38,844 nt of DNA, from contig CAZELK010000007.1 in assembly GCA_964513145.1 (NCBI GenBank), forward strand, positions 11,960-50,803, read 5' to 3'. The notes beneath the pieces are model-generated. The model had not been told where the DNA came from. It ran no database searches and saw nothing but the letters and a program-made list of their open reading frames with translations. This DNA is from Candidatus Woesearchaeota archaeon. GTDB taxonomy: Archaea > Nanobdellota > Nanobdellia > SCGC-AAA011-G17 > JACPIM01. Numbering within the stretch: position 1 is the stretch's first letter; the number at the start of each line of letters is the position of its first letter. A program made the position numbers and the translations under genes. Below, piece by piece: positions 1,997-18,596 of the stretch.

Positions 1997-3025
1997 TTGT
2001 TAGATTATGATTATGGTAATTATCAATTATGGATGATATTTGGAATTGATAATGGGTTATTAAGTTGTTTCAAAGCAGCAAAAGGTCACAAACAAAAAGT
2101 AATAAAATATAAAGAATATCCGCTTCCTTTAGATTCAAGATTTATTAAAGACTGGTTTAGAACAAGAGATACTAAATTAACCAAAAATTGGATTAAAATC
2201 CCCAATTCTAAAAGAAAAGGTCAGGGTATTTGGTTGCCATTAAAATTTCATAAAGAATTGCCTAAAAAATACAAATTAAAAGATTCTTTCCTAGTTAAAA
2301 GAAATAACAAATACTATATTCATTTTACTATAGAAATAGAAGCTCCTGAACAATACAAGCCTAAAAATGTAATTGGAATAGACTTGGGATTAAAAAATCC
2401 AGTTACTTTGGTTAATATTAATACAAGAAAAACCAAATTTTTAGGCAGAGAACTAAAGCAAGTTAAAGGAAAATATTATTATTTAAGAAAGAAATTAGGT
2501 AAAGAAAAAAAACTAAAACAAATTAAAAAAATAAAAGACAAGGAAAAGAGAAAAGTACATTCTGAGCTGCATAAATTATCTAAACAAATTGTAACTGAAG
2601 CTTATAATAATAAATCAGCAATAGTAATAGGAAAATTAAGTAATTTAAAGAAAAATAAAGGAAGAAAATTTAACAGAAAACTATCTTCATTTTCTTATTA
2701 TAAGTTAACTCAATTATTAGAATATAAATGTAAAAAAAAAGGAGTTCCTTTAATTAAAGTAAATGAAGCATATACAAGTAAAACTTGTCATGTTTGTAAC
2801 ATGATAGGTACAAGAAATAAAAACTGGTTTAAATGTAATAATTGTAAATATGAGGATAATGCAGACAGAAACGCTGCATTCAATATTGGAAAACGGGGTT
2901 TAAGCTATATGCTTGGATCAGGGGCAAATGCTTTTGCCCAGAAGCCTAACCAGATTAGGCAAGCACAAGAACCTTTTAAGAAAAGCCTTGGGAAAAACGA
3001 GGAAATTGTACAAATTTGTAATTAG
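1997..3025 (+). CDS. tnpB: TnpB RNA-guided nuclease with rearranged RuvC-II; start codon uncertain (frame open from 1922)
   Basis: RuvC-I IGIDLG, IVIGKL at the canonical E position, alternative E in NEAYTSK, zinc finger CHVC/CNNC, RuvC-III ADRNAA. Confidence 0.9.
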   Translation: MLDYDYGNYQLWMIFGIDNGLLSCFKAAKGHKQKVIKYKEYPLPLDSRFIKDWFRTRDTKLTKNWIKIPNSKRKGQGIWLPLKFHKELPKKYKLKDSFLVKRNNKYYIHFTIEIEAPEQYKPKNVIGIDLGLKNPVTLVNINTRKTKFLGRELKQVKGKYYYLRKKLGKEKKLKQIKKIKDKEKRKVHSELHKLSKQIVTEAYNNKSAIVIGKLSNLKKNKGRKFNRKLSSFSYYKLTQLLEYKCKKKGVPLIKVNEAYTSKTCHVCNMIGTRNKNWFKCNNCKYEDNADRNAAFNIGKRGLSYMLGSGANAFAQKPNQIRQAQEPFKKSLGKNEEIVQICN

Positions 3026-3056
3026 TATTAAAAAGGATTAATTTATGTGCAAAGCT
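2900..3056 (+). ncRNA. Putative omegaRNA scaffold overlapping the tnpB 3' end (boundaries approximate)
   Basis: Hairpins GGGCAAA/TTTGCCC (2922-2939) and GCCTAA/TTAGGC (2944-2960) followed by CAAGAACC, as at typical tnpB 3' ends. Confidence 0.5.
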
Positions 3057-3068
3057 GAGATATCCCTA

Positions 3069-3260
3069 TTATTCACCAAATGATATGGCCAATAATATTA
3101 AACCCCCTATGATTAATATTACTGAAATAACAGCCAGAGTATATTTTTCTTGAAGAATTGATGGTATTGCCCATGTGATACCTAATACAGTACTTATAAC
3201 TCCAGCCATAGCAAGTAGATTTCTTCTGGTTTTATTCATTATCTCACTAAATAATATCAT
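3069..3260 (-). CDS. Small two-TM membrane protein
   Basis: 63 aa, two hydrophobic helices, ATG start. Confidence 0.55.
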   Translation of the reverse strand: MILFSEIMNKTRRNLLAMAGVISTVLGITWAIPSILQEKYTLAVISVILIIGGLILLAISFGE

Positions 3261-3398
3261 ATATAAAAATTATTATAATACTTTCGTTCTTTTTTTCGGA
3301 AATATTTCGATTAAATCTGGTTTATCCGCAAACTTTTGACTATTAAAGAAAAACATTTTCTTTTAAAATAATATGTCCATTCCAATGTATTATTTTAA

Positions 3399-4307
3399 TT
3401 ATTGAATTTGGGTGGGTCCATATATTTTTGGTCTTTTGTGAGAAATTATTTTTACAAGATTTTTATGCACTAATTTGCTTAATTGCTTGCCAACGCTGCC
3501 TTCTGTAGTTTTCAAAAGCTCGGCTAATTCCTGGGCTGTCCTATTTGAATCCTTTAAAACGATTATTATATTTTCCTCCATTGGACTCAATGTTGTTTCT
3601 TTTACTTTTTCTTCTTTCTTAATCTTTAACAAACTTTGTACATCATTTATTGTTATTTCTTTTTTTCCTTTAAAATTAATACAAATTTTTTCACATGTTT
3701 CAAGAATCATTCTCGGGGTGTAATCTGCTTTTTCTATAATCAGGTTTATTGCTCCTTCTGTAAATGGGCATATCTTACCGCATCTTTTTTTTACCAGATC
3801 GAATGCGTTTTGCTCATTTAATTTAGTTAATTTTATAATTCTAGTACCAACTCTATGCCTGAAACCTTCTGGTATTTCTGGTTCTTGTCCTGGCTGGGCA
3901 AAGACTATACTCTTAATATGATTCTCATCAAAATGAAGCTTTAGTGCGTATCTAAACTCTTCATTTACTGATGCAGATTCATCTAATAATAAAACAGTAT
4001 TTTTTGGGTAATCAGAACCAAATAAGCGCCGGGATAATTTTGTATGATCATTTAGAAAATTTTTTATGCTGAAGTCTTTTTCAATAGTTTCCATATTTAG
4101 GTAAGCTATAAAATGATTTTTGAGATTATTTTCAAGCCATCTTAACAGGCTTGTTTTTCCAGCCCCAGATTCTCCAACTAAAAAACATACATCGCCGCTA
4201 GTTACATAATTTAAAAGCTGTTCTTTTTCTTGCTCAAAGTTTATAACAATTGGGCTTGGCTTTATAAAAAAGGGGTTAGATTTCCACCCATATGAGACGT
4301 ACCACAT
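3399..4307 (-). CDS. AAA ATPase with C-terminal winged-helix domain
   Basis: Walker A GESGAGKT, Walker B LLLDES, C-terminal TAQELAELLKTTEGSVGKQLSKL helix-turn-helix. Confidence 0.8.
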   Translation of the reverse strand: MWYVSYGWKSNPFFIKPSPIVINFEQEKEQLLNYVTSGDVCFLVGESGAGKTSLLRWLENNLKNHFIAYLNMETIEKDFSIKNFLNDHTKLSRRLFGSDYPKNTVLLLDESASVNEEFRYALKLHFDENHIKSIVFAQPGQEPEIPEGFRHRVGTRIIKLTKLNEQNAFDLVKKRCGKICPFTEGAINLIIEKADYTPRMILETCEKICINFKGKKEITINDVQSLLKIKKEEKVKETTLSPMEENIIIVLKDSNRTAQELAELLKTTEGSVGKQLSKLVHKNLVKIISHKRPKIYGPTQIQ

Positions 4308-4424
4308 TTTCTTAAGATATAACTAGGTTGATTAATAAGTATTTTTGTGATAAAACAGCAATAATCAAATAACACCTTATAAACAATAGTTTTAAATATG
4401 ATTTTTTGTAAGATTTTCGAGACT

Positions 4425-4485
4425 TTCGTAAACTTGCTGGACAAAAACTACTGGACAAGACAAAGACCTGCCTGGCACTTATATA
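4425..4485 (+). repeat. Shared promoter-proximal element, copy 1, with TATA box TTATATA (4479-4485)
   Basis: 4440-4473 matches the reverse complement of 8401-8434 at 33/34; 4425-4474 aligns with 17731-17779. Confidence 0.85.
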
Positions 4486-4509
4486 GTTCAAAGTCTTTCA
4501 TCAAAATTT

Positions 4510-5472
4510 ATGAAAAGACTAGCACAAGAAAATAAAGAATCTATCAAAAAATTAGCTAATGAAGGTTTAAGTTTAAGGGAAATTCAGAAAATAACAAAGA
4601 TCCCATTAAGTACTTTACAATATAATTTAAATAAAAATAGTGGTCGAAAAAGAACAAAAGAAATTATAATTCCCGAATCTGATTTTTTAAGGGGTGAAAT
4701 AATTGGCGCTTTTACTGGAGATGGCTGTTATAAATATACAAAGAGAGGTAGGTCTAGAAACCATTTAATTACATTTACATTATCTTTTGAAAAAGATAAA
4801 TAATATTGTGATTATCTTGTATCTTTATTGAAGAAATTTGATCTTAAAGTTAGTGTATATATTAAGAAATTAAAAAATAAACCCACAGCATTTGAAATAA
4901 GAACATATTCTTTAAATTTCATAATCTTTCTTAAGAACTACCTAATATGGGAGAATAAAAAATTATCCATAAACAAAAACTGAAATTCCAAAACTAAAAC
5001 TTATTCTGTTCATTTAAAACAATCTGTGGAAAATTATTCGGAGGAATTTTTGTTGGGGTTCGCAAGAGGATTAATGGATACTGATGGTTTTGTTAGTAAT
5101 AGAGTTGGATGTGGAGTAGTTTCGGAAAGATTAATTGATAATTTAAAAGAGATACTCTCAAAAAATTATATTAAATCTATTATTAAAATAATTAAAAGAC
5201 CACTAAATAGAAGAGATTTGTATTTATTAACAATTGATAAAAGAAATTTAAATAATTATGAACAAAAAATAGGTTTTAGCAATTTAAGAAAAAAGAAAGA
5301 ACTTCTTAAAAAAATATTAAAAATGAGGCCGCCAGGATTTGAACTTTCCCAATTGTTTTTCAATTTCTGGGTCGCAAGGTGGTTTGCTTTTTTTATAAAG
5401 TCCCAAACCTCGAAGTCTAACCAAGTTGGCCCATTAAAGTCTAGCCTACGGCTATATGCTTCGAAACAGTAG
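4510..5472 (+). pseudogene. HTH plus double-motif LAGLIDADG homing endonuclease with two in-frame stops
   Basis: N-terminal HTH (GLSLREIQKITKIPLSTLQY), motifs IIGAFTGDG and FARGLMDTDG in one frame; TAA 4801-4803 and TGA 4981-4983; frame reads antisense through tRNA-Pro. Confidence 0.85.
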
Positions 5473-5484
5473 TTTTAAAGTCCC
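5324..5484 (-). tRNA. tRNA-Pro(UGG) with four introns (3/4, 15/16, 37/38, 52/53)
   Basis: Exons 5484-5482, 5452-5441, 5425-5402, 5380-5367 and 5344-5324 join to a 74-nt cloverleaf with acceptor GGGGCCG/CGGCCTC and anticodon loop TTTGGGA. Each junction folds as a strict or relaxed BHB. One D-stem mismatch. Confidence 0.88.
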
Positions 5485-5605
5485 ATACCTTGCTAACTGA
5501 TACTGACTGCCTCATTATTTTAACCGACCAATCTTATTTATAAATCTATTTATGCTAATTTAAAACAAACAAAAGCTTTATAAGAATATTTAAAAGTAAA
5601 AAAAT

Positions 5606-7048: not shown

Positions 7049-7270
7049 TTCTCATTTAAAGTGAAGCTCCCAGTCACAGCCACGTTTTGATTAAACTTTT
7101 TCCAAAAAAGTTTACTGTGTGGCATCCTTTTAAAATAACGTTTTCCGTTAACGCTTTTCTCAAAAGGGTTAGGGTTCTTGGTTCATTGAGTCAGAATAAG
7201 TCTTGTTTTTTCCCAAGGCTTTTTCATAAAAAGGCTTTCCCCAAGCGTTACTTCCTGTCCTTCCGACAGT
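7041..7270 (-). ncRNA. Putative omegaRNA; scaffold ends at 7061, guide from ~7060-7041 (boundaries approximate)
   Basis: Structured region overlapping the tnpB 3' end and finishing at TTCAC; established TnpB architecture. Confidence 0.55.
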
Positions 7271-8365
7271 AGCTTTTTTTAATATATTTAAAGCGGAATT
7301 ATAATCTCTGTTAATGTTTAATCCACAATCACAATTATGTTCTCTATTAAACAACTCTTTTTTAACTATTTTATTACAATTACTGCATTCCTGGGTTGTT
7401 CCTCTCGGGTCTACTTTTATTACTTTAATACCAGCACTTTCAGCCTTGTACTCAAGCATTTGTATAAATTTAAACCATGAAGCATCTGAAATTGATCTTG
7501 ATAAATATTTATTTTGAATCATATTTTGAATTTGTAAATTTTCTACAGCAATTAAATTGTAATTATTTATATAATATCTGCTTAAATTATGCAGAAAATC
7601 ATTTCTTTGGTTTTCTATTTTCTCATGTAATCTGGCAACTTTTAATCTTTGCTTGTTTCTATTATTGCTTCCCTTTTGTTTTTTGGATAATTTTCTTTGT
7701 TCAATCTTTAATTTTTCCAAAGATTTATTCAGAAATTTATGATTTGGAAAATAATTTTCATCACTATCAGAAATGTAATTTGTTAAACCTAAATCTATTC
7801 CAATTTGTTTGTTAATTTTTTGTTTAATTTCTTTTCTATCTATCTCACAAGATAAACAAGCAAACCATTTATTAGAATAATATTTTTTAATCGTGACTTG
7901 TTTTATTTTACCTTTTGATTCTCTATGTGTTCTTATTGGAATTTCTCCTATTTTAGACAAATGCAGCTTATTTAATCTTTTATTAACTTTAATTAATTTA
8001 AAACCAGACTGATTATATGTAATTGACTTAAAGCTATTTTTAGATTTAAATCTTAATCTCCCTGTTTTCTTTCCATTTTTCTTTAATTTTGATAAGGCAC
8101 TTAAATTACTGAATAATCTGTAAGATTCATATTGTAATGTCTTGGAATAAGCCTTGTTTAATTCTTGATAACATATTTTTAGATCAGGGATTATTCCTTG
8201 TATTTGGGATTTATCTATTTCTTTTTGATTATTTAATTCCTGCAATAAGGTATTATAAGTAAATCTGCACAAGTCTATGTGCTCTAATAATATATTCTCC
8301 TGGGTTTTACTGGGATATATTCTGAATTTGAAAGTTCTTTGTATTTTATTCTCTTTTCTCTTCAT
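7169..8365 (-). CDS. tnpB: TnpB RNA-guided nuclease with canonical D-E-D triad
   Basis: N-terminal TFKFRIYP, IGIDLG, IAVENL, CSNC/CDCG zinc finger, RDYNSALN. Confidence 0.95.
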   Translation of the reverse strand: MKRKENKIQRTFKFRIYPSKTQENILLEHIDLCRFTYNTLLQELNNQKEIDKSQIQGIIPDLKICYQELNKAYSKTLQYESYRLFSNLSALSKLKKNGKKTGRLRFKSKNSFKSITYNQSGFKLIKVNKRLNKLHLSKIGEIPIRTHRESKGKIKQVTIKKYYSNKWFACLSCEIDRKEIKQKINKQIGIDLGLTNYISDSDENYFPNHKFLNKSLEKLKIEQRKLSKKQKGSNNRNKQRLKVARLHEKIENQRNDFLHNLSRYYINNYNLIAVENLQIQNMIQNKYLSRSISDASWFKFIQMLEYKAESAGIKVIKVDPRGTTQECSNCNKIVKKELFNREHNCDCGLNINRDYNSALNILKKATVGRTGSNAWGKPFYEKALGKNKTYSDSMNQEP

Positions 8366-8388: not shown

Positions 8389-8434
8389 TATATAAGCCCT
8401 AGGCAGGTCTTTGTCTTGACCAGTAGTTTTTGTC
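8389..8434 (-). repeat. Shared promoter-proximal element, copy 2, with TATA box, upstream of tnpB
   Basis: GACAAAAACTACTGGTCAAGACAAAGACCTGCCT, then CTTATATA 23 nt before the ATG. Confidence 0.85.
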
Positions 8435-8514
8435 TCATACTAATTTATAAAGAGATAAAAAGTTTACAGAAAAACTGTAAATATTATTTTGTATTTTACC
8501 CAACCATAGCAAAG

Positions 8515-11961: not shown

Positions 11962-11999
11962 GAAAGATTTAAAATTCTATTTCTGATTGAATTATTTAT

Positions 12000-12073
12000 G
12001 GGCTCGTAGTAGAACTGGTTAATACGCTCCCATGGCATGGGAGAAACTTCGGATTCAAATTCCGACGAGTCCA
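12000..12073 (+). tRNA. tRNA-Ala(GGC), intronless
   Basis: Acceptor GGGCTCG/CGAGTCC with G3:U70, anticodon stem CTCCC/GGGAG, loop ATGGCAT. Confidence 0.93.
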
Positions 12074-12340
12074 TTATAATCAAAGAAAAAAGCTTTACCA
12101 AAAAAAATTAAATAAAGAAAATGGAGTGCGCCCCTAAAATGAGACAAATAGATAAGTATATTTGATACTCAAAATTAGGAGATGTACATGATATTATCAA
12201 GAAGAAAATATTTATGTTAAATGATATTCCAGAAATAAGTTATAAAGAAGATTTTTAGCAATTAATCCAATTATCTTAAATGAGATTTAAATAAAATTAA
12301 GGTACTAAAAACTTATAAATATTAAAATCATATTAAACTT

Positions 12341-16660: not shown

Positions 16661-17350
16661 TTAGTTGATATATGCTACTAGTTGTTTTCTAAAAGATTGG
16701 CTTCTTTCTTCATCTGTATAATAAAAATCAATAGGATCAAATAACATAGAATTGTCATTTTTTCTAAAGCCAACTGTTAATGAACGAGTATTTCTAATTA
16801 ATAATGTTTTTCCTTCTTTTCTATCGGCTAATTTCTCAAGTTTCTTTCTTGCATTTTTAAGAATATTTTTTGGAGTACCAAAAAGATAGTGAGTAAATAT
16901 ATCTATAGGGAAATCAGCGAGTTCTTGCCATAATTCACTATATACTTTTATAACTCTATCAAATTGTGTTTTAAAAAATTTATATGGATCAACACCCTTT
17001 CCTTCAAATTCTTCTCTTCTTAACATAGTATCTATTGACGCAGCTGCTAACTCCAACATACCCTTATTAGAAATTTCTCCTTCTGTAATTTTAATTTTTT
17101 CTTCTAATTTATGAAAGAACCTTGCAAAGACTAATTGTGATAAAGAATACCTTTCTAGATTAGACGCATAAATTAAACCCCCTCCACAAGGCAAGGAAAT
17201 TGAAATTAGAGAGGTTTCACTATCGATTATTTTTAACTCTAACCCTTTAGATATATTTTCTTTAAATTCCCATTGAATATCAGCAGTTTCTCTTAAAGCA
17301 GCCTCTAAAATTCTTATTCCATCCGCTTTTTCTTCTGGTGATATTTTCAT
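16661..17350 (-). CDS. Hypothetical protein
   Basis: 229-aa ORF, ATGA overlap with the upstream gene; no recognised motif. Confidence 0.65.
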   Translation of the reverse strand: MKISPEEKADGIRILEAALRETADIQWEFKENISKGLELKIIDSETSLISISLPCGGGLIYASNLERYSLSQLVFARFFHKLEEKIKITEGEISNKGMLELAAASIDTMLRREEFEGKGVDPYKFFKTQFDRVIKVYSELWQELADFPIDIFTHYLFGTPKNILKNARKKLEKLADRKEGKTLLIRNTRSLTVGFRKNDNSMLFDPIDFYYTDEERSQSFRKQLVAYIN

Positions 17351-17664
17351 AGTAATCTCTCCAGTTTTTGGGCGAATTCAACAAAACGAAGAACTTCAGT
17401 TTCTCTTAAATCCTTAGTAAATTTTATAACTATTTTCTTTAACGAATTTAAAGAATCTATATCATCTCTAAAACTTTCTTGTAAATGTTTTTTTAAATTA
17501 TTTTTTAATTCAATTAACGTTAAGTCAATGTCTGTACAAGATCCAGTAACTTCTTGGCTCAATCTTGAGTTAAGATTTTCTAGACTCTTCTTTGGATTAA
17601 TCCCTCTTTTGAAATCTTTTAACGAATTTTCTAGTTCTTTATACACTTCTAAAATCTTTATCAT
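17347..17664 (-). CDS. Hypothetical helical protein
   Basis: 105-aa ORF with a TATA-like sequence upstream. Confidence 0.6.
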   Translation of the reverse strand: MIKILEVYKELENSLKDFKRGINPKKSLENLNSRLSQEVTGSCTDIDLTLIELKNNLKKHLQESFRDDIDSLNSLKKIVIKFTKDLRETEVLRFVEFAQKLERLL

Positions 17665-17730
17665 AAATGCTTTAAAAGAAATTTTTGTTTATAAATCTCT
17701 ACTATTCTGTAGTTGGAAAATCTTATATTT

Positions 17731-17779
17731 TTCGTAAACTTGCTGGACAAAAGCACTAGACAGGACAAAGACCAGCCTG
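17731..17779 (+). repeat. Shared element, copy 3, abutting a 5'-truncated LAGLIDADG frame
   Basis: TTCGTAAACTTGCTGGACAAAAGCACTAGACAGGACAAAGACCAGCCTG aligns with 4425-4474. Confidence 0.82.
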
Positions 17780-17780
17780 A

Positions 17781-18356
17781 CGTTTAAATTCTAAACAGCC
17801 AACCATAAATTTTATATTTAATGAATCTGAAAAAGTTAGATGGCTTGCTATAAAAACTTATTTTGACTTTGATGGATGTATATACCCTTCATTTAAATTA
17901 AAAAGAAAAATTGACCGAAAGAAAGATAAGTTTTATTTATATTACCAGGTACAATTTGGGTGTGAAATTAAAATCGCTGAAACTAATCCAAATTTAAATG
18001 ATGAATTAATTATATTATTTAAGACTCTTGGTCTAAATGCAAAGAAGAAGTTCCGAAAAAGAAATTGGAGTGGATTAGAGGGTGTTGGATTTTCTGATCG
18101 AAAAAGCGTATTAAAATTTATAGAATTTGGAAAGCCCATAACTGATATAAAAATTTCTTCTAAAAGTAAACGTTTTGAAAGTTTAAAGAAAATTTATTTA
18201 TTTAGTGCTGTTGAAAAAATTTTGCTTTATAACTTACTTCCAACTTCGTGCACATTTAAAAATTATAAAGACGCCTTAGATTGCAAAACTTATTTAAATA
18301 GAGAATTAGAAAAATTAGTGAGAGATAGCCCTGATAACAGCCCCGTGGAAGTTTAA
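17781..18356 (+). pseudogene. 5'-truncated LAGLIDADG endonuclease (C-terminal domain, no start codon)
   Basis: Open frame from after TGA 17778-17780 to TAA 18354-18356: ...TINFIFNESEKVRWLAIKTYFDFDGCIY...; absent from the ORF track because it has no start codon. Confidence 0.72.
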
Positions 18357-18444
18357 TCTGCGGAATGTAGCGGCCAAGCACATAGCCCTTTGGTCTTTTA
18401 TAGGGAGCAAGGCTTTGACCCAAGTTCGAATCTTGGCGGGGCTA
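18339..18444 (+). tRNA. tRNA-Gln(UUG) with two introns (10/11, 37/38)
   Basis: Acceptor AGCCCCG/CGGGGCT; introns 18349-18365 (CCGT/GCGG) and 18394-18409 (CTTT/GGAG). Confidence 0.9.
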
Positions 18445-18493: not shown

Positions 18494-18596
18494 AGTCCTG
18501 TCGTTCAGCGGTCAAAGATATAAAATCGACTTTGGACACTCGGCTCTGGAAATTGGAGACCCCGAGAGATCGGAGGTTCGAATCCTCCCAGGACTA
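18494..18596 (+). tRNA. tRNA-Gln(CUG) with two introns (21/22, 37/38)
   Basis: Acceptor AGTCCTG/CAGGACT; introns 18516-18533 (GGTC/GACT) and 18550-18560 (CTCT/GGAG, 11 nt). Confidence 0.9.

Follow-up and report, generated by a model that had tools for sequence, protein, structure and literature searches.

Free-standing LAGLIDADG genes docked on tRNA genes in a Woesearchaeota genome, and the introns of the tRNAs beside them

How do free-standing LAGLIDADG endonuclease genes come to lie against intron-rich tRNA genes, and are they the source of the introns? The question is raised by a 38,844-nt stretch of the genome of a Candidatus Woesearchaeota archaeon (hereafter the window: contig C7, positions 11960–50803, of the 0.98-Mb genome G000, ∼28% G+C and 98.8% complete). 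Here one LAGLIDADG gene runs convergently into a tRNA-Pro gene with four introns, and a second runs co-directionally into a tRNA-Gln(UUG) gene with two. An earlier note on this DNA had pointed to both arrangements, had described both endonucleases as decayed, and had proposed collaborative homing as the origin of the introns: the enzyme would cut the intron-less tRNA allele, the intron-bearing allele, being immune, would be co-converted, and repeated cycles would pile up tiny introns. The arrangements, their coordinates and the decay were confirmed. As to the mechanism, the tie between endonuclease and tRNA gene holds, and holds widely; the spread of intron-bearing alleles and the accumulation of introns do not, and among tRNA-Pro(UGG) genes adjacency to an endonuclease is not associated with intron number, the outcome that the note itself had named as counting against its proposal. 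The two loci are probably the product of a patchy, often decayed selfish endonuclease that would home into the spacer at the end of a tRNA gene, with the tRNA gene as its conserved landmark.

The two loci and their docking on tRNA genes

The first gene (endonuclease 1; 4510–5325, forward strand) is a free-standing pseudogene in which an N-terminal helix-turn-helix (HTH) precedes a double LAGLIDADG region; PF14528 and an alignment of homologues place it in a clade docked on tRNA-Pro. The match to PF14528 (LAGLIDADG_3) falls in two stretches and scores 50.3 bits (cutoff 22.5; E = 2.9e-13). Its 23 homologues are mostly 259–282 aa in length and show ∼37–56% identity (∼50% for the intact ones); the closest come from records labelled Woesearchaeota, Nanoarchaeota or Pacearchaeota. 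The homologues are stand-alone open reading frames (ORFs), and endonuclease 1 is likewise free-standing: it lies outside the tRNA gene and antisense to it.

Neither locus in the window has an intact reading frame. In endonuclease 1 a TAA nonsense codon (4801–4803, forward strand) stands in an alignment column occupied by Q, K, E or D in ten homologues, and an in-frame insertion of ∼36 nt (12 codons; 4960–4995, forward strand, edges good to a few nt), found in no homologue, contains a TGA (4981–4983). A reading of the insertion as a mini-intron was rejected: no bulge-helix-bulge (BHB) motif excises it while sparing the conserved residues. The frame has no stop codon of its own; codon 272 overlaps the last 2 nt of tRNA-Pro, and the open frame extends across the tRNA, in antisense, as far as 5472. 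Alignments of 11 and of 20 sequences, the window copy among them, show the GDG and TDG motifs without variation, and both catalytic aspartates are kept.

The predicted fold was obtained from the intact homologue of the same genus (P0004, from the congener G003) and not from the broken window copy. The AlphaFold model (predicted local distance difference test score 92.3) consists of a three-helix HTH and two alpha-beta-beta-alpha-beta-beta-alpha domains, and its best Foldseek match in the PDB is I-DmoI (template modeling score 0.76–0.79), followed by PI-PfuI and I-SceI. Fold, motifs and lesions thus identify window copy 1 as a pseudogene of a genuine double-motif LAGLIDADG endonuclease, for which site-specific cleavage is predicted. 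No close paralogue of either endonuclease was found elsewhere in G000 by tblastn; a profile search of that genome gave one distant LAGLIDADG match, a probable intein lying within an 878-codon frame of contig C2.

The second gene (17781–18356, forward strand; homologue alignment) is the start-less C-terminal two thirds of another LAGLIDADG_3 endonuclease. Its frame is open for 191 codons, with no ATG, GTG or TTG before 18222, and aligns at 48–50% identity to residues ∼110–300 of two LAGLIDADG_3 proteins of ∼300 aa; because the alignment covers only these residues, the N-terminal third (the start and ∼110 residues) must be missing. Alone it falls under the PF14528 threshold (E = 0.25), and its full-length homologue P0026 carries the domain. 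It is co-directional with tRNA-Gln(UUG), the 5′ end of which it overlaps by 18 nt. No sequence similarity is detectable between the two endonuclease proteins. The loci are likely to be decaying copies of two unrelated free-standing LAGLIDADG families, family 1 docked on tRNA-Pro(UGG) and family 2 on tRNA-Gln(UUG).

Remnant 2 also forms part of a larger block: together with two genes (229 and 105 aa) at 16661–17664 on the reverse strand it makes up ∼1.7 kb between a Bud32-like kinase gene and tRNA-Gln(UUG). The block is fully absent from the congener G003, and the congener G001 has only the 229-aa gene.

Docking was measured in homologue loci from a scan of one genome per species, which yielded 46 loci (L-numbers below) of ∼6.7 kb, usually with one tRNA each. 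In ∼40 of 43 assessable free-standing homologues a tRNA end lies between −100 and +37 nt of the endonuclease stop codon. All close homologues of endonuclease 1 are docked at tRNA-Pro(UGG) (16/16, or 17/17 with the window), 11 convergently, like the window, and 6 co-directionally. The more remote homologues in archaea stop at tRNA-Gly, Asp, Cys or Gln, and bacterial relatives (Omnitrophota, candidate phyla radiation (CPR), Planctomycetes) lie 2–20 nt upstream of, or overlap, tRNA-Ser. Family 2 members adjoin tRNA-Gln, their more distant relatives tRNA-Ile(GAU) or tRNA-Pro. In several homologue proteins the C-terminal peptide is the translated antisense T-arm. A fresh sample of 20 additional LAGLIDADG loci, picked by protein score alone from genomes of the same order, gave the same picture: every one of the 20 ends at a tRNA gene, for Gly in most cases and for Glu or Ala in the rest.

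Exceptions comprise three intein-like matches in long frames (L026, L039, L040), one contig end, a broken copy 161 nt from tRNA-Ser, one locus with the tRNA at the endonuclease 5′ end, and L031. On a maximum-likelihood tree of the endonucleases tRNA identity requires 7 label changes, against a mean of 19.3 for shuffled labels, and no shuffle among 200 went that low; the Pro clade is supported by a Shimodaira–Hasegawa-like approximate likelihood ratio test value of 95, and the co-directional Pro type forms a single nested subclade. Adjacency is a clade-specific family rule, in archaea and bacteria, and above chance.

L031 (positions 2900–3760, from an uncultured archaeon) is organized in its own way: the LAGLIDADG ORF lies inside a tRNA gene, with the acceptor and D-arm just before its ATG and the T-arm and 3′ acceptor right after its stop codon. 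This would be an endonuclease-bearing tRNA intron of ∼750 nt.

Intron number and the endonuclease

The tRNAs were called by hand reading, with scripted ARAGORN runs, and from a comparison with relatives that included the congeners G001, G002 and G003; an Rfam scan of the whole window at gathering thresholds returned zero families, even for the intron-less tRNA-Ala at 11999–12074 that ARAGORN matched. Intron geometry was checked by script against the BHB motif, a 4-bp central helix with two 3-nt bulges.

The tRNA-Pro(UGG) gene of the window (5324–5484, reverse strand) is read as five exons (5484–5482, 5452–5441, 5425–5402, 5380–5367 and 5344–5324) and four introns, on the basis of hand reading, comparison with G002 and the BHB script; its 3′ end meets the 3′ end of endonuclease 1. 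Intron 1 (29 nt; 5453–5481, reverse strand), at position 3/4, has a strict BHB, and an intron at the same site in G002 keeps the central-helix pairing via base changes. Intron 2 (15 nt; 5426–5440, reverse strand), in the D-loop, combines a 4-bp central helix with two 3-nt bulges and lacks an inner helix; it does not occur in G002, and at that site G008 has one of 17 nt. Intron 3 (21 nt; 5381–5401, reverse strand), at the canonical position 37/38, has a strict, textbook BHB and a near-identical counterpart in the endonuclease-free G008, which carries D-loop and T-arm introns as well. Intron 4 (∼22 nt; 5345–5366, reverse strand, edges ±1–2 nt) lies in the T-arm at 52/53 and has a relaxed BHB with a 3-bp central helix. 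In the G002 gene introns stand at 3/4 and in the T-arm and nowhere else. The 98.8%-complete G000 yielded no other tRNA-Pro(UGG).

A 58-nt first intron, beginning from an acceptor-like sequence at 5512, was also considered; the 29-nt intron at 3/4 was preferred because it gives an exon structure identical to that of G002 together with a strict BHB. The tRNA-Pro leader and the start of intron 1 (5453–5518, reverse strand) resemble 5375–5452 on the same strand, a segment that comprises the end of the D-loop intron, the anticodon and the first part of the 37/38 intron; the local score is 32, shuffled sequence reaching at most 27, and in G002 and G004 the likeness is weak. The opening six bases are identical in three of the four tRNA-Pro introns. 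These features suggest that the 3/4 intron may have arisen via partial duplication of the anticodon/intron region.

If the endonuclease drove intron gain, docked genes should be the intron-rich ones. They are not. Among the 17 docked tRNA-Pro(UGG) genes ten have no intron, five have one, one has two, and four introns occur only in the window. Endonuclease-free tRNA-Pro genes of the same family or order carry two (G002, G028, G010, G005 and G007) or three (G008). Within the genus the count is four beside the broken endonuclease of G000, two in G002, which has none, and one beside the intact endonuclease of G003. The ten docked genes without introns stand beside apparently intact endonuclease genes, so that an intron is not needed for coexistence with the enzyme. 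Co-occurrence of endonuclease and intron across genomes, which collaborative homing calls for, was not found.

The position of the T-arm intron, the one nearest the endonuclease, could be read in favor of the proposal: it lies on the endonuclease side in the window, L001 and L003, and, by unaided reading, in L012. T-arm introns at the same site occur, however, in the endonuclease-free G002, G008, G005 and G007 as well as in the docked G003 and L003, direct homology having been shown only for G002 and G003. They are found in 4 of 11 convergent docked genes as against 4 of 6 endonuclease-free genes. Because the T-arm intron aligns between G002 (endonuclease-free) and G003 (docked), and is homologous in the two, it was not introduced by the endonuclease. 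The D-loop, 3/4 and 37/38 introns, for their part, lie far from the endonuclease side.

The tRNA-Gln pair of the window tells the same story. The docked gene, tRNA-Gln(UUG) (18339–18444, forward strand; compared with G001 and G003), has introns at 18349–18365 (D-stem, 10/11) and 18394–18409 (37/38); its counterparts in G001 and G003, with no endonuclease there, have three and one. Beside it, tRNA-Gln(CUG) (18494–18596, forward strand) can serve as an internal control because no endonuclease gene touches it: with two introns in G000, none in G001, and one each in G002 and G003, it nevertheless varies by two introns among congeners. The tRNA-Ser genes of the bacterial clade are intron-less throughout.

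From these counts intron number emerges as a fast-changing trait of the tRNAs in this lineage, one that does not follow the endonuclease. The endonuclease genes are truly tied to tRNA genes, and displaced tRNA 3′ segments (described below for L002, L012 and L017) show that the cassette can take tRNA sequence along; the intron-gain mechanism of the earlier note is nonetheless not supported, and we consider the cutting of intron-less alleles with conversion to intron-bearing ones a very unlikely account of these genes. The result is a useful negative for the origin of multiple introns in archaeal tRNAs, in that the intron number of the same gene across relatives is independent of the endonuclease. 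Some other process must therefore lie behind intron turnover that spans 0–4 introns between congeners.

A milder version would have the endonuclease spread whichever tRNA allele is linked to it, so that alleles and introns would pass back and forth among lineages without any net bias toward gain. The docked tRNA-Pro of G003 differs from the alleles of G000, G002 and the family in its acceptor, anticodon and T stems, and is without the 3/4 intron; L002 and L017 hold tRNA 3′ remnants of a different allele. Yet the spliced tRNA-Pro of the window is that of the endonuclease-free G002 minus one D-loop T (an extra base in G002), with the D-stem pair 12–23 mismatched in both, and tRNA alleles do not track the endonuclease subclade formed by the window, L001 and L002, few as these cases are. 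Such shuffling is possible, if doubtful.

Insertion and patchy distribution

The distribution of the endonuclease genes is patchy, which, together with their decay and divergence, we read as the mark of a selfish element. Of 240 genomes of the order, 7 have the close Pro type, spread across five families, and 18 have family 2; ∼7 of the best 30 endonuclease matches have in-frame stops. Within the genus the gene is present in two of four genomes, intact in G003 and broken in G000; G001 and G002 yielded none. The G000 and G003 endonucleases are only 53% identical, against 64–90% for six flanking proteins. Comparison of G003 with G002 resolves the event to a clean single-gene insertion of ∼860 nt, 17–20 nt 3′ of tRNA-Pro, in which trailer sequence already present beside the tRNA supplies the final endonuclease codons.

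These data bear on whether the protein has been domesticated, that is, whether it is a vertically inherited, tRNA-linked DNA-binding protein (an HTH joined to a LAGLIDADG scaffold, in the manner of WhiA) that serves the host at tRNA loci. Its constant position, the presence of the HTH, and the confinement of the Pro clade to the tRNA-Pro/L37ae neighborhood would all fit. A host function is hard to reconcile with presence in only 7 of 240 genomes, absence from two of the four congeners, frequent nonsense codons and retention of the catalytic aspartates, and in G000 the gene is broken with no second copy in the genome. We regard domestication as highly improbable.

Traces of insertion are preserved at a few loci. 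In L002, L012 and L017 displaced copies of the tRNA 3′ third sit immediately before the endonuclease promoter, across the gene from the tRNA; these would be the expected leftover of an insertion that duplicates or replaces that segment. L017 (2690–2985) has three successive, ever more degenerate antisense tRNA-Gly 3′ copies upstream of the endonuclease, from an allele that differs from the functional tRNA-Gly, and these nested copies look like scars of repeated insertions. In L012 (2791–2975) the displaced tRNA-Pro 3′ fragment is split in the T-loop by an insertion of ∼160 nt.

Such repeats also invite comparison with integrase-type elements, which target tRNA 3′ ends and leave direct tRNA repeats (PMC3293823); the endonucleases could then be cargo of elements entering tRNA genes, with adjacency a by-product. 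The difference between G002 and G003 is, however, a single-gene indel. The three flanking proteins of the window that were scanned (an AAA ATPase and two TnpB) contain no Pfam integrase domain, no tRNA repeat occurs upstream of endonuclease 1 in the window, and the endonuclease frame overlaps the tRNA in most loci. Of the explanations considered, transport as integrase cargo strikes us as barely credible.

The preferred explanation is selfish homing at the tRNA gene end. The enzyme would recognize DNA of the tRNA gene end together with a short stretch of trailer or leader; genomes that do not carry the endonuclease gene would be cut, and the gene copied into the spacer during repair. The conserved tRNA gene would act both as recognition landmark and as one homology arm, and would be left undestroyed. 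After fixation the gene would decay, through nonsense codon, insertion or truncation, to the state now seen in the window. The small BHB introns of tRNA-Pro and tRNA-Gln are the archaeal lineage's own, and their turnover is independent of the endonuclease genes. Two points of this account are inferences: cleavage or homing at the tRNA gene end, and continued mobility of the family.

Several observations weigh against this explanation. Displaced tRNA remnants occur in only 3–4 of ∼60 loci (L002, L012, L017 and possibly L020), and none turned up in the window or among the 20 freshly sampled loci. Homing alone leaves unexplained why it is the 3′ end of the endonuclease, rather than either end, that faces the tRNA in nearly all loci. 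The surroundings are also remarkably constant: the ancestral order in relatives is AAA-ATPase (−), tRNA-Pro (+), L37ae (+), and L37ae adjoins 16/16 Pro-type loci, the endonuclease lying between tRNA and L37ae in the convergent type and upstream of the tRNA in the co-directional type. Long vertical inheritance in the tRNA-Pro/L37ae spacer, combined with many losses, would look largely alike. Finally, comparison with G002 and G003 shows that the [tRNA, endonuclease] pair of the window is inverted with respect to its AAA-ATPase and L37ae flanks, which simple homing does not explain.

Alignment of upstream regions adds detail to the inversion. A promoter-like box that precedes tRNA-Pro in G002 and G003 stands in the window beside the AAA-ATPase gene and then endonuclease 1 (4372–4392, forward strand), and a second, inverted copy lies upstream of the tRNA (∼5530–5548, reverse strand), such that two inverted copies bracket the [endonuclease, tRNA-Pro] pair.

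Two relatives differ in this region. In G001 (L048; C25:1–330) tRNA-Pro appears to be missing from its usual spot upstream of L37ae; unrelated, G+C-richer sequence begins exactly at the expected start of the tRNA trailer, and the contig ends 290 nt upstream. In G008 (L051; C1:2700–3390) two small genes occupy the endonuclease position, upstream of the three-intron tRNA-Pro; judged by eye, they look like an antitoxin and a PIN-type toxin.

A 55-nt sequence common to the upstream regions of both endonuclease loci was considered as a split-tRNA half or a homing site. Both readings were rejected, for the sequence is a promoter-proximal repeat element with 12 copies in G000. The element has a conserved core of ∼35 nt with an internal direct repeat, located 5 nt upstream of a TATA-like box and 23–30 nt before the ATG. 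One copy (4424–4478) precedes endonuclease 1 and with its TATA-like box covers 4424–4488 on the forward strand. Comparison of the genome copies places another against the truncation point of remnant 2 (17726–17782, forward strand) and a third (8401–8450, reverse strand) before tnpB (7169–8365, reverse strand). The 12 copies precede both LAGLIDADG genes, one tnpB and nine other genes; possibly the element acts as a common operator or promoter for selfish genes.

Significance and relation to known systems

Should tRNA gene ends prove to be homing sites, then tRNA genes are targeted by homing endonucleases as well as by integrases. The clade specificity, for Pro, Gly, Ala, Glu, Gln, Ile and Ser, would then be readable from genome context and would constitute a natural panel of enzymes with predictable targets; the displaced tRNA fragments and replaced alleles known from archaea would also have one concrete source. 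More tentatively, free-standing LAGLIDADG genes might represent a broad class of tRNA-docked selfish elements in small-genome archaea and bacteria, each clade specific for one tRNA identity, that by homing take with them all or part of the linked tRNA allele: perhaps vectors for the exchange of alleles, fragments and introns in either direction, and a source of duplicated and displaced tRNA pieces.

Full-text literature searches returned no paper, for either archaea or bacteria, that reports free-standing LAGLIDADG genes with a tRNA gene as docking site, and a paper on rRNA insertions in CPR makes no mention of tRNA. Integrase-borne elements at archaeal tRNA genes, with intron content altered via the incoming element, were described by Sugahara et al. 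2012 (PMC3293823), who cite Randau and Soll for the view that introns shield tRNA genes from mobile elements; the words 'LAGLIDADG' and 'homing' are absent from the text of that paper. As in those integrations, the tRNA genes here serve as landing sites, and a few loci have displaced 3′ fragments; in contrast, what is inserted here is a single endonuclease gene.

The proteins themselves most resemble I-DmoI and the other monomeric, double-motif endonucleases of archaeal rRNA introns, with which they share two LAGLIDADG_3 domains in one chain, both aspartate motifs and the predicted fold. Unlike that group, the genes described here are free-standing, encode an extra N-terminal three-helix HTH and are docked outside the tRNA, and the window copy is broken.

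Collaborative homing is exemplified by F-CphI of cyanophage S-PM2, a free-standing endonuclease encoded beside an ORF-less intron in psbA. The likeness lies in a free-standing endonuclease gene next to an intron-containing gene; the co-occurrence of endonuclease and intron sets that system apart from the present one.

A further parallel comes from phages. SegB of T4 and the nickases of the T5 tRNA region, together with 'intronless homing', are cases of free-standing endonucleases beside tRNA genes that are thought to promote inheritance of their own neighborhood. The phage enzymes belong to the GIY-YIG or HNH families, whereas those described here are LAGLIDADG proteins of cellular organisms: DPANN archaea, Omnitrophota, CPR and Planctomycetes. 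Furthermore, and unlike the phage enzymes, each clade is bound to one tRNA identity, with its reading frame welded to the end of the tRNA gene.

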